Assembly: GCF_003019035.1 (NCBI RefSeq) | Contig: NZ_CP027447.1 | Source of the DNA: Escherichia coli | Lineage (GTDB): Bacteria; Pseudomonadota; Gammaproteobacteria; Enterobacterales; Enterobacteriaceae | Direction: 5' to 3' (one strand) | Length of the DNA: 64,000 bases | In this document: in pieces, positions 36,033 to 43,758 of the stretch | How positions within the stretch are numbered: the first letter of the stretch is position 1 | Layout: each line of letters starts with the position of its first letter | Notes under the pieces: generated by a model | Seen by the model: the letters and a program-made list of their open reading frames with translations, nothing else | The model's database searches: none | What the model was told of the DNA's origin: nothing | Made by a program: the position numbers and the translations under genes

Positions 36033-36049
36033 CTTAAGGTTAAGTTAAT
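36033..36049 (+). promoter_or_regulatory. PmrA (BasR) box upstream of arnB
   Basis: cttaag-gttaa-gttaat: two hexamer half-sites separated by 5 bp (consensus CTTAAT-N5-CTTAAT), about 95 bp upstream of the arnB start. Confidence 0.7.
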
Positions 36050-36129
36050 ATTCTATCCTTAAAATTTCGCTCCAAATGGCAAAATATACACAACACTCTT
36101 TATAGCAAATATAAGTGGACAGGTATTCA

Positions 36130-37287
36130 ATGGCGGAAGGAAAAGCAATGTCAGAATTTTTGCCTTTTTCGCGACCAGCAATGGGCGTAGAGGAACTCGC
36201 TGCAGTTAAAGAGGTTCTCGAATCCGGTTGGATCACAACCGGTCCGAAGAATCAGGCGCTTGAACAAGCCTTTTGCCAGTTGACGGGAAATCAGCATGCC
36301 ATCGCGGTCAGTTCAGCCACCGCCGGAATGCATATCACGCTAATGGCGTTGGAAATTGGCAAGGGCGATGAAGTGATTACGCCTTCCATGACCTGGGTTT
36401 CAACCCTCAATATGATTTCCTTGCTGGGTGCAACGCCGGTAATGGTGGATGTCGACCGCGATACGCTGATGGTCACGCCTGAAGCGATCGAGTCAGCCAT
36501 TACGCCACGCACTAAAGCCATCATTCCGGTGCATTATGCCGGTGCGCCAGCAGATATTGACGCCATTCGCGCCATTGGCGAACGTTACGGCATCGCAGTT
36601 ATCGAAGATGCTGCCCATGCCGTCGGTACGTATTACAAAGGGCGACATATTGGCGCAAAAGGTACCGCTATTTTTTCATTTCATGCCATTAAAAATATTA
36701 CCTGTGCTGAAGGTGGCCTGATTGTAACTGATAATGAAAACCTTGCCCGCCAGCTACGGATGCTGAAATTTCACGGTCTGGGTGTCGATGCCTATGACAG
36801 ACAAACCTGGGGCCGTGCACCGCAAGCTGAAGTCTTAACACCGGGCTATAAGTACAATCTGACCGATATTAACGCCGCGATTGCCCTGACCCAGTTAGCC
36901 AAATTAGAGCACCTCAACACCCGTCGGCGCGAAATTGCCCAGCAATATCAGCAAGCACTGGCAGCTCTCCCCTTTCAGCCATTAAGCCTTCCCGCCTGGC
37001 CGCACGTTCACGCCTGGCATCTGTTTATTATTCGTGTCGATGAACAACGTTGTGGTATCAGTCGCGATGCGTTGATGGAAGCGTTAAAAGAAAGAGGCAT
37101 TGGTACCGGGTTACATTTCCGCGCCGCTCACACACAAAAATATTATCGCGAGCGTTGTCCCACGCTGTCGTTACCGAATACCGAATGGAATAGCGAACGC
37201 ATCTGTTCGTTGCCGCTGTTCCCGGATATGACCACCGCCGATGCCGACCGCGTCATCACAGCCCTTCAGCAACTCGCAGGACAATAA
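36130..37287 (+). CDS. arnB: UDP-4-amino-4-deoxy-L-arabinose--oxoglutarate aminotransferase
   Basis: ORF from GTG 36115. ATG 36130 gives 385 aa ([10 protein letters not shown]...); an alternative ATG at 36148 has a stronger AAGGA SD. DegT/ArnB PLP aminotransferase. Confidence 0.93.
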
Positions 37288-37290
37288 ACC

Positions 37291-38259
37291 ATGTTTGAAA
37301 TCCACCCTGTTAAGAAAGTCTCGGTGGTTATTCCCGTTTATAACGAGCAGGAAAGCTTACCGGAATTAATCAGGCGCACCACAAAAGCCTGTGAATCACT
37401 GGGGAAAGAGTATGAAATCCTGCTGATTGATGACGGCAGTAGCGATAATTCCGCGCATATGCTGGTCGAAGCCTCACAAGCGGAGGGCAGCCATATTGTG
37501 TCTATCTTGCTTAACCGCAATTACGGGCAACATTCAGCGATTATGGCGGGATTCAGTCACGTTACTGGCGACTTAATTATTACCCTTGATGCCGATCTCC
37601 AGAATCCGCCAGAGGAAATCCCCCGTCTGGTGGCAAAAGCCGATGAAGGTTACGACGTGGTAGGGACTGTACGCCAGAACCGCCAGGACAGCTGGTTTCG
37701 TAAAACGGCATCGAAGATGATTAACCGGCTTATTCAGCGCACCACCGGCAAAGCGATGGGTGACTACGGTTGTATGCTGCGCGCCTATCGCCGTCATATT
37801 GTCGATGCGATGTTGCACTGCCATGAACGCAGTACCTTTATCCCGATTCTGGCGAATATCTTCGCCCGCCGTGCCATTGAAATTCCAGTGCATCATGCCG
37901 AGCGTGAGTTTGGTGAATCCAAATACAGCTTTATGCGCCTGATTAATTTGATGTACGACCTGGTGACCTGCCTTACCACAACGCCGCTACGTATGCTGAG
38001 TCTGCTCGGCAGCATTATTGCGCTTGGAGGTTTTAGCATTGCGGTGCTGCTGGTGATTTTACGCCTGACCTTCGGACCACAATGGGCGGCAGAAGGCGTC
38101 TTTATGCTATTTGCCGTGCTGTTTACTTTTATTGGCGCTCAGTTTATCGGCATGGGATTACTCGGTGAATATATCGGCAGGATCTACACCGATGTCCGCG
38201 CCCGCCCCCGCTATTTTGTTCAGCAAGTTATCCGTCCATCCAGCAAGGAAAATGAATAA
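37291..38259 (+). CDS. arnC: Undecaprenyl-phosphate 4-deoxy-4-formamido-L-arabinose transferase
   Basis: 322-aa GT2-family ORF with C-terminal TM helices. Confidence 0.95.
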
Positions 38260-41128: not shown

Positions 41129-42780
41129 TGAAATCGGTACGTTACCTTATCGGCCTCTTCGCGTTTATTGCCTGCTATTACCTGTTACCGATCAGCACGC
41201 GTCTGCTATGGCAACCCGATGAAACGCGTTATGCGGAAATCAGTCGGGAAATGCTGGCTTCCGGCGACTGGATTGTGCCTCATCTGTTAGGGCTACGTTA
41301 TTTCGAAAAACCCATTGCCGGATACTGGATTAACAGCATTGGGCAATGGCTATTTGGCGCGAATAACTTTGGTGTGCGGGCAGGCGTTATCTTTGCGACC
41401 CTGTTAACTGCCGCGCTGGTGATCTGGTTTACTCTGCGCTTATGGCGCGATAAACGTCTGGCACTACTCGCCGCTGTCATTTATCTCTCGCTGCTTATTG
41501 TCTACGCCATCGGCACTTATGCCGTGCTCGATCCGTTTATTGCCTTCTGGCTGGTGGCGGGAATGTGTAGCTTCTGGCTGGCAATGCAGGCACAGACGTG
41601 GAAAGGCAAAAGCGCGGGATTTTTACTGCTGGGAATCACCTGCGGCATGGGGGTGATGACCAAAGGTTTTCTCGCCCTTGCCGTGCCGGTATTAAGCGTG
41701 CTTCCATGGGTTGCAACGCAAAAACGCTGGAAAGATCTCTTTATTTACGGCTGGCTGGCGGTTATCAGTTGCGTACTGACGGTTCTCCCCTGGGGACTGG
41801 CGATAGCGCAGCGGGAGCCTGACTTCTGGCACTATTTTTTCTGGGTTGAGCATATTCAACGCTTTGCAATGGATGATGCTCAGCATAGAGCTCCGTTCTG
41901 GTACTACTTGCCGGTCATCATTGCCGGTAGCCTGCCGTGGCTGGGATTACTCCCCGGAGCACTGTACGCAGGCTGGAAAAACCGCAAGCATTCCGCAACC
42001 GTCTATTTGTTGAGCTGGACGATAATGCCGCTGCTGTTTTTCTCCGTCGCTAAAGGCAAATTGCCCACCTATATTCTTTCCTGCTTTGCACCTCTGGCAA
42101 TGCTGATGGCGCATTACGCTTTGCTGGCAGCAAAAAATAATCCTCTGGCGCTGCGGATTAATGGCTGGATTAACATCGCTTTTGGTGTCACTGGCATTAT
42201 TGCCACATTTGTGGTCTCCCCATGGGGACCAATGAACACGCCAGTGTGGCAAACCTTCGAGAGCTATAAAGTCTTTTGTGCCTGGTCGATTTTTTCGCTA
42301 TGGGCATTTTTCGGCTGGTACACCTTAACAAACGTCGAAAAGACCTGGTCTTTTGCCGCGCTTTGCCCGCTGGGGCTGGCGTTGCTGGTAGGATTTTCAA
42401 TTCCTGACAGAGTCATGGAAGGAAAACATCCGCAATTTTTTGTCGAGATGACACAAGAATCACTTCAGCCAAGCCGCTATATTCTTACTGATAGCGTCGG
42501 TGTTGCCGCAGGTCTGGCATGGAGCCTGCAACGCGATGACATCATCATGTATCGCCAGACAGGTGAGTTGAAATACGGCCTTAATTATCCGGATGCGAAA
42601 GGGAGATTTGTCAGCGGTGATGAGTTCGCAAACTGGCTTAATCAACATCGTCAGGAGGGGATTATTACACTCGTACTTTCGGTTGACCGCGATGAAGATA
42701 TCAACAGTCTCGCCATTCCGCCCGCAGATGCCATCGATCGTCAGGAGCGTCTGGTGCTGATTCAGTATCGTCCCAAATGA
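41128..42780 (+). CDS. arnT: Undecaprenyl phosphate-alpha-4-amino-4-deoxy-L-arabinose arabinosyl transferase
   Basis: 550-aa polytopic membrane glycosyltransferase (GT83). Confidence 0.95.
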
Positions 42781-43112
42781 TCTGGCTAACATTAGTCTTT
42801 GCCAGCTTGCTTAGCGTTGCCGGGCAGTTGTGTCAGAAACAGGCAACCTGCTTTGTGGCGATAAACAAACGGCGCAAACATATCGTGCTGTGGCTGGGAC
42901 TGGCGCTGGCTTGTCTTGGTCTTGCCATGGTGCTCTGGCTGCTGGTCTTGCAGAACGTACCGGTAGGCATTGCCTACCCGATGTTAAGTCTGAATTTTGT
43001 CTGGGTGACGCTGGCTGCAGTAAAACTGTGGCACGAACCGGTATCGCCGCGTCACTGGTGTGGGGTGGCGTTCATTATTGGTGGCATTGTGATCCTCGGG
43101 AGTACCGTGTAA
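42777..43112 (+). CDS. arnE: Undecaprenyl-phosphate-Ara4N flippase subunit ArnE
   Basis: 111-aa 4-TM small multidrug resistance-like protein; overlaps the arnT stop. Confidence 0.9.
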
Positions 43113-43498
43113 TGGGCCTGATGTGGGGATTATTCAGCGTCATTATCGCCTCCGCTGCGCAATTAAGCCTGGGTTTTGCGGCGAGTCATCTGCCGCCGAT
43201 GACGCACTTATGGGATTTTATCGCGGCGCTGTTAGCTTTTGGCCTGGATGCCCGGATACTGTTACTCGGGCTGCTGGGTTATCTGCTTTCCGTTTTTTGT
43301 TGGTATAAAACACTACATAAACTTGCACTAAGCAAAGCCTATGCCTTGCTCAGTATGAGTTATGTGCTGGTATGGATTGCTTCAATGGTACTTCCCGGCT
43401 GGGAAGGAACTTTTTCGCTGAAAGCACTACTGGGAGTAGCCTGTATTATGAGCGGGTTGATGCTGATTTTCCTGCCCACGACAAAACAACGTTACTGA
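43112..43498 (+). CDS. arnF: Undecaprenyl-phosphate-Ara4N flippase subunit ArnF
   Basis: 128-aa ORF starting [23 protein letters not shown], read in a frame inside the track ORF 42830-43498; TAATG overlap with arnE. Confidence 0.88.
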
Positions 43499-43758
43499 GT
43501 TTTCCCTGCCACTTTACACTGCCGTTCCCACTCATCGGGGCTGTAGCTGCTTGCCGAGAGGACTTTCACCGTATGCAGCTTTTCACGATTAATACAATAA
43601 AGCGCATTCTGCAAAGGCGAGAGTAAATCCCCCACTTTCACGGCGAAGTCACTCTTCACTTCGGCAATCATTTTTATCGTGCCACCAGCATCACAAAGCT
43701 TAAGTACATGTCTGTTATCTTGTTTATCACAGCATGACTTTTTAACCAGCCATTCCAT
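43492..43758 (-). CDS. pmrD: Signal transduction connector protein PmrD
   Basis: ORF 43492-43788. Preferred start is ATG 43758 ([26 protein letters not shown]), giving 88 aa; convergent with arnF and overlapping its 3' end by 7 nt. Confidence 0.9.

Follow-up and report, generated by a model that had tools for sequence, protein, structure and literature searches.

The arn-pmrD locus

The DNA analyzed here is a 64,000-nt window of Escherichia coli (contig NZ_CP027447.1, RefSeq assembly GCF_003019035.1) that contains the operon arnBCADTEF and, converging on its last gene, pmrD, which encodes a connector protein. Attention centers on the boundary between the two, where the coding regions overlap, no convincing intrinsic terminator is recognized on either side and a conserved hairpin is predicted inside arnF. 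Gene coordinates in the window are those of the RefSeq annotation. The plus strand carries arnB (36148-37287), the UDP-Ara4N (uridine diphosphate 4-amino-4-deoxy-L-arabinose) aminotransferase gene (NF008658, 740 bits against a cut-off of 631); arnC (37291-38259; 672 against 529), for the undecaprenyl-phosphate 4-deoxy-4-formamido-L-arabinose (Ara4FN) transferase; arnA (38259-40241; 1256 against 777), for the bifunctional formyltransferase and UDP-glucuronic acid (UDP-GlcA) oxidase; the deformylase gene arnD (40238-41128; 519 against 382); arnT (41128-42780; 815 against 567), whose product transfers Ara4N to lipid A; and the genes of the two flippase subunits, arnE (42777-43112; 215 against 92) and arnF (43112-43498; 140 against 99). 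On the minus strand lie pmrD (43492-43758; NF011994, 167 bits against 96), which specifies an 88-residue protein and faces arnF, and the flanking genes menE (43868-45223) and ais (35238-35840).

The gene identities proposed in a sequence-only reading of this DNA agree with the RefSeq annotation and with the curated cut-offs of NCBIfam, which are passed by nine of nine proteins, at equivalog level for all except Ais, which passes at subfamily level. The order B-C-A-D-T-E-F is present, with each of the seven Arn proteins above its equivalog cut-off. The same reading had all seven arn genes overlapping by 1-4 nt. This is true of five junctions, with overlaps of 1 nt at arnC/arnA, arnD/arnT and arnE/arnF and of 4 nt at arnA/arnD (ATGA) and arnT/arnE; arnB and arnC are instead separated by a 3-nt gap (TAA acc ATG). 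The segment 35900-43900 matches E. coli SCU-301 (NZ_CP051751.1) at 100% identity, which places it on the E. coli chromosome, and has matches in 5421 of 5426 complete E. coli genomes.

As a whole the locus is very probably the canonical E. coli system that adds 4-amino-4-deoxy-L-arabinose (L-Ara4N) to lipid A, and this is the best explanation of what it contains. Phosphorylated PmrA (PmrA-P; PmrA is also called BasR) would bind the direct repeat CTTAAG-N5-GTTAAT, which overlaps the -35 region of a predicted sigma-70 promoter with -10 hexamer TAAAAT, and would activate a single long arnBCADTEF transcript whose seven frames, at most 3 nt apart and overlapping by up to 4 nt, are presumably coupled in translation. 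pmrD would be transcribed separately on the opposite strand, from a promoter that lies between menE and pmrD and depends on PhoP, and its product would protect PmrA-P from PmrB. The two units would meet tail to tail without a spacer, their stops sharing 7 nt, and Rho or processing probably ends both transcripts. The stable 3′ end of the pmrD-sense RNA may be the conserved hairpin that lies about 130-170 nt into arnF.

L-Ara4N on lipid A is a main route to polymyxin and colistin resistance, which gives the locus its clinical relevance. Published work already describes the PmrA box, the arn operon, the connector gene and the overlap of transcripts, as textbook or catalogued features, and confirming them adds little. 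New here are the arnF hairpin, the tail-to-tail abutment across Escherichia, Salmonella and Citrobacter (from a 6-7-nt overlap to a 23-nt gap) and the apparent lack of a convincing intrinsic terminator on both sides of the boundary.

The convergent overlap and transcript ends

arnF and pmrD share the segment TTACTGA (43492-43498, both strands), a 7-nt overlap that the sequence-only reading had located correctly. Both stop codons lie inside it, the arnF stop TGA at 43496-43498 and the pmrD stop TAA as the reverse complement of 43492-43494, and the boundary holds no intergenic DNA. Because both stops fall within the shared 7 nt, complete arnF and pmrD mRNAs are complementary over at least 7 nt. 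The proposal that read-through from either side would create antisense RNA to the other gene is therefore sound, and stronger than it was put: with the coding regions overlapping, functional mRNAs of the two genes cannot both end before the overlap.

In E. coli MG1655 the pair is listed among 165 convergent excludons identified from RNA sequencing (RNA-seq) with ExcludonFinder in 2025, with overlapping arnF and pmrD transcripts in at least 50% of 58 samples (PMC12288877). Through its coding overlap and its RNA-seq overlap the pair qualifies as a convergent excludon by the transcript criterion, like the other convergent genes with overlapping transcripts in that catalogue, whose authors remark that arnF and pmrD share a pathway (PMC12288877). 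The hallmark of an excludon is mutually exclusive expression, whereas arnF and pmrD are co-induced in one cascade.

No G+C-rich stem followed by a U-tract is found just after either stop codon at the arnF/pmrD boundary. A scan for the terminator consensus returned 12 sites where 11.9 are expected, none of them just beyond the arnF or pmrD stop. Two candidate terminators were rejected. A plus-strand stem at 43545-43580 followed by UUUUCACG, picked up by an RNAfold sliding scan, is no more stable than shuffled sequence (z -0.37) and is not conserved in E. albertii, and a terminator-like sense-strand stem within arnF (43391-43406), followed by a T run, is at chance level (z -1.0). Rfam searches gave no family at gathering score in the whole 64-kb window and none in 43000-44000 at E values up to 1. 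With no convincing intrinsic terminator past either stop, each transcript must enter the other gene as untranslated antisense RNA. Past the arnF stop the RNA is rich in C and poor in G, with C/G ratios up to 2.7, a composition that is compatible with Rho-dependent termination yet equally typical of antisense RNA.

Conservation of the tail-to-tail geometry

The geometry was compared in 18 species-representative loci obtained from one scan of a genome collection with the PmrD alignment, to which the Salmonella enterica locus (L020) was added. Conservation in the clade refers to Escherichia, Salmonella, Citrobacter and Intestinirhabdus, the pmrD loci of Klebsiella and Enterobacter lying outside the sample. 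The arrangement menE → pmrD → ← arnF is kept in 17 of the 18 loci. The 7-nt stop overlap recurs in E. coli-like loci, strains MG1655 and 81009 included, and in E. albertii, a 6-nt overlap is found in S. enterica (L020) and S. diarizonae, Citrobacter loci have gaps of 0-9 nt, and the widest gap, 23 nt, is that of S. arizonae. The pbgPE or pmrHFIJKLM locus of S. enterica has the same order, ais (pmrG) ← → arnBCADTEF → ← pmrD ← menE, and its arnF and pmrD stops overlap as well. The absence of a spacer is thus old and general in the clade. The 7-nt form of the overlap is specific to Escherichia and stems from three extra C-terminal residues of PmrD (KTQ; 88 residues against an 85-position profile).

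Several loci in the sample have independently lost most or all of the operon. In Escherichia sp. MOD1-EC7003 (L003:3260-3980), arnB codons 1-20 are fused to arnF codons 39-128 and a nonsense codon is present; in 'E. coli' SCPM-O-B-8794 (L004:3250-3700), arnB codons 5-27 are fused to arnF codons 107-128; and in Intestinirhabdus alba (L017:3259-3508) no arn gene is left between pmrD and ais. All three retain ais, pmrD and a PmrA-type box, which is aimed at pmrD from about 80-500 nt past its stop. The operon of S. arizonae CCUG 6322T (L012:3256-6237) is decayed, with arnF frameshifted, arnE truncated and no match to arnA or arnC between the arnD and arnB fragments.

The predicted hairpin within arnF

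A folding scan predicts a conserved hairpin on the minus strand at 43319-43362 (core 43326-43355), within arnF codons about 70-84. It coincides with an invariant 11-residue motif of ArnF and lies about 130 nt past the pmrD stop. The minus strand folds with -23.7 kcal/mol (z -5.1) and the plus strand with -15.2 kcal/mol (z -2.8), and the best local hairpin is found at the equivalent position in E. albertii and most Citrobacter species. The stem is followed by CAAGUUUAUG, with no U-tract, so the hairpin is not a canonical intrinsic terminator.

The stability of the hairpin was compared with a synonymous-codon null, in which codons are resampled with each locus's own codon usage. The minus strand is more stable than this null in E. 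coli (p 0.002), E. albertii (p 0.017), S. diarizonae (p 0.03) and S. enterica (p 0.02), and in 9 of 11 Citrobacter loci (p 0.004 or less). The hairpin falls within the null in C. amalonaticus S646 (p 0.79), in L024 (p 0.29) and in S. arizonae, where arnF is decayed. Outside the hairpin, only 31-49% of codons for the same residue are identical to those of E. coli in comparisons between genera. Synonymous sites have thus largely turned over, which argues that the stem has been maintained and is not merely undiverged. The RNAalifold consensus is also asymmetric, at -18.6 kcal/mol on the pmrD-sense strand against -9.1 kcal/mol on the arnF-sense strand.

Stem-loops at the 3′ ends of Rho-terminated transcripts block trimming by 3′ exonucleases. 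The arnF hairpin resembles such structures in being stable, in having no U-tract, in lying past a gene that lacks an intrinsic terminator and in being part of an untranslated, moderately C-rich RNA; it differs from them in being antisense within a conserved coding motif of another gene and in accompanying, in locus L021, a convergent gene other than pmrD. With moderate confidence it is regarded as a candidate stem-loop that would stabilize the 3′ end of whichever convergent transcript enters arnF.

Several findings count against the account given so far. Covariation in the hairpin is not significant, with 83.2% of alignment cells paired against 82.0% in shuffles, and the case for it thereby comes to rest on the synonymous-codon null and the asymmetry between strands. 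Because positions 1 and 2 of a codon pair with positions 2 and 1 of the codon opposite, the amino-acid sequence determines roughly two thirds of the pairs. The hairpin is present in locus L021, which has no pmrD and in which a convergent phosphopantetheinyl-transferase gene overlaps arnF by 49 nt; it is weak or absent in two further contexts. For transcript ends, the three 3′-end or full-length transcript datasets searched give no mapped 3′ end for either pmrD or the arn operon: the Adams 2021 and SMRT-Cappable-seq supplements have no entry for pmrD or arnF, and the TRS supplements have no pmrD 3′ terminus. Finally, since the coding regions themselves overlap, the excludon listing is near automatic and says little about the extent or the effect of the transcript overlap.

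Two arguments once considered for the hairpin were given up or weakened. A link specific to pmrD is ruled out by L021, where the hairpin accompanies a different convergent gene. The excess of G.U over A.C combinations (41 against 11 cells), taken as proof of the strand on which the stem acts, loses force because several of the G.U pairs are forced by preferred codons.

The strongest competing explanation is that the overlap and the hairpin are neutral by-products, the former of genome compaction and of the three-residue extension of PmrD, the latter of a quasi-palindromic 10-residue peptide combined with codon preference. The variability of the boundary (7 nt, 6 nt or gaps of 0-23 nt) is in keeping with it, as is the end of the PmrD profile at residue 85, which leaves the extension outside. 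A codon-level origin is a serious alternative for the hairpin in particular: the protein sequence dictates most of the pairs as described above, preferred codons, among them CTG, GCC and AAA, give rise to many of the G.U pairs, covariation fails to exceed the shuffle controls, and the structure is missing in C. amalonaticus S646 and L024. Codon resampling, which allows for both the peptide and codon usage, nevertheless leaves the hairpin exceptional in E. coli and in most Citrobacter loci at p 0.004 or less and in Salmonella at 0.02-0.03; the stem persists despite the turnover of codons around it, and in the consensus fold one strand is twice as stable as the other. On balance the by-product account has a real though minority chance of being correct, and the stem-loop at the 3′ end of an incoming convergent transcript is retained as the working interpretation of the hairpin.

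Possible regulatory effects of the overlap

The overlap might also be a working excludon. When PmrA-P is high, antisense RNA from arn read-through would lower PmrD through collision of polymerases or through cutting of the RNA duplex by RNase III, and conversely PhoP-driven transcription of pmrD would dampen arnE and arnF. Such an arrangement would close a loop resembling the repression of the pmrD promoter by PmrA in Salmonella, a promoter-level feedback that is documented for that genus only (PMC2565834). In its favor, the abutment is kept across Escherichia, Salmonella and Citrobacter with a spacer never above 23 nt, a terminator is absent between or just past arnF and pmrD, and the two transcripts overlap in MG1655 RNA-seq (PMC12288877). 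L003 and L004, having lost nearly the whole arn operon, have kept the PmrA-box promoter, about 500 and 220 nt past the pmrD stop. Reciprocal expression of arn and pmrD is, however, reported nowhere in the literature searched, and the two are co-induced in the cascade from PhoP through PmrD to PmrA, which runs contrary to mutual exclusion. Closely packed convergent gene pairs are moreover common in enterobacteria, as the number of convergent pairs catalogued in MG1655 illustrates (PMC12288877), and Rho usually clears untranslated antisense RNA fast. A working excludon is accordingly judged unlikely.

Negative feedback from PmrA-driven arn read-through onto pmrD, taken by itself, is an attractive idea whose chances are at best equally low. 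Rather doubtful, too, is the joint proposition that a stem maintained by selection, acting through synonymous codon choice in the ArnF motif, forms the end of the pmrD-sense RNA at 43319-43362 and that arn read-through antisense provides PmrA with post-initiation feedback on PmrD. Were it true, it would be a previously undescribed feedback layer of the PhoP-PmrD-PmrA circuit and might help to explain the difference between the E. coli and Salmonella connectors. Any effect of the overlap on the circuit would add a layer of feedback to a much-modelled two-component network and turn one of the many convergent excludons so far only catalogued into a tested case. For addressing the question, the stem inside arnF is a small, concrete handle.

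The PmrA box and the arnB promoter

The PmrA (BasR) box CTTAAGGTTAAGTTAAT, a direct repeat of the form CTTAAG-GTTAA-GTTAAT with a 5-bp spacer, occupies 36033-36049 on the plus strand, exactly where the sequence-only reading had placed it, 115 nt ahead of the arnB start codon. No other exact match occurs in the 64 kb, where 0.01 would be expected (100 shuffles). Relaxed PmrA patterns occur in the window at chance frequency, and the significance of the box rests on the exact match and its position only. Published half-sites are CTTAAG and XTTAAT with a 5-bp spacer (PMC3973317), and a stricter consensus reads (C/T)TTAA(G/T)-N5-(C/T)TTAA(G/T) (PMC10729948). The box conforms to the former definition; the initial G of its second half-site fits XTTAAT and is the one mismatch to the latter.

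Ten base pairs beyond the box lies a probable -10 hexamer of the arnB promoter, TAAAAT (36060-36065, plus strand), of which the T and A are invariant in the ais-arnB alignment. With this spacing the box would cover the -35 region, from about -40 to -24, and transcription would probably start near 36072. An alignment of five ais-arnB intergenic regions, drawn from Escherichia, Salmonella and Intestinirhabdus, has its best-conserved island at the box. The corresponding site of S. enterica (L020), CTTAAT-GTTAA-TTTAAT, is likewise 115 nt from the arnB ATG, has the identical GTTAA spacer and stands 10 bp from a hexamer, TAGGGT, at the same spacing as in E. coli; its half-sites, CTTAAT and TTTAAT, differ by single bases from CTTAAG and GTTAAT. 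PmrA footprints have been reported on the Salmonella and Klebsiella pbgP promoters (PMC2565834, PMC3973317), and a P_arnB-gfp reporter in MG1655 requires pmrA, with PmrD as a conditional connector (bioRxiv 10.1101/2020.05.05.080051). A 2023 study of enteropathogenic E. coli (EPEC) noted that the arn regulatory region contains the PmrA consensus 'with a slight modification'; its 60-mer, which equals 36013-36072 bar one base, holds PmrA and QseB motifs and is shifted by phosphorylated QseB (QseB-P) (PMC10729948). On the negative side, the literature searched has no PmrA footprint on the E. coli site, and the sole gel shift on this DNA is the one with QseB-P.

That the repeat is mainly a QseB site, as this gel shift and the raised arnB expression in a pmrA qseC double mutant (a sign that arnB can be activated without PmrA; PMC10729948) might suggest, or a chance AT-rich match like the relaxed patterns, rather than a PmrA operator, is very improbable in view of the uniqueness of the exact pattern, its homology in position and sequence to the footprinted Salmonella pbgP site, its standing as the best-conserved island of the intergenic region, the dependence of the MG1655 reporter on pmrA, and the close paralogy of QseB and PmrA, which makes cross-binding compatible with a PmrA operator.

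Of 5414 E. coli genomes, 5339 carry the 101-bp promoter around the PmrA box at 99% identity or more, whereas the 8-kb operon region reaches this level in only 4. The allele at 35900-43900 is in this sense unusual: identity of at least 99% over 8 kb is seen in just 4 of 5421 genomes, and the best match to the arn-pmrD region after the source strain is 98.6% identical. This suggests a divergent or recombinant arn-pmrD coding allele behind a conserved promoter.

A second conserved island between ais and arnB spans 35947-35970. Within it AAAATGCCT (35950-35958) is invariant in five regions from three genera, and in E. coli it sits inside the inverted repeat GGCAAAAT-N8-ATTTTGCC. On the ais strand AAAATGCCT reads TTTGAGGCATTTT (TTTAAGGCATTTT in Salmonella), which is similar to a PmrA half-site. 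The island may be part of the ais/pmrG promoter.

PmrD and the region upstream of pmrD

The PmrD of this locus is a member of the connector family of about 85 residues. Its residues 1-85 align to all 85 positions of NF011994, and PmrD homologues carry PF11183. The Salmonella protein has 85 residues as against the 88 found here, and its connector activity is robust, that of the E. coli protein being conditional (PMC2565834; bioRxiv 10.1101/2020.05.05.080051).

Upstream of the gene, on the minus strand, a block at 43789-43814, GTTTATCTGTTAATCTGTAAATTAAT, hardly varies among E. coli strains and E. albertii, in contrast to its divergent flanks, and is the probable PhoP-dependent promoter region of pmrD. 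The GGTTTA within it is presumably a PhoP half-site, with no clear second half-site identified in the block. Transcription of E. coli pmrD is reported to be PhoP-dependent, and a PhoP box has been described for the gene (PMC2565834; bioRxiv 10.1101/2021.07.26.453917). The block also contains the hexamers GTTAAT and ATTAAT, which are 6 bp apart and not 5 and do not form a canonical PmrA box; in MG1655 the second hexamer is ATTGAT.

At the start of the gene, the TRS study lists an 'Internal' RNA 3′ end in MG1655 within the first few pmrD codons (K-12 position 2373524, minus strand; PMC10687069 supplement), equivalent to about 43750-43758 on the minus strand of the window. It could be the end of menE read-through or an attenuation site before pmrD.

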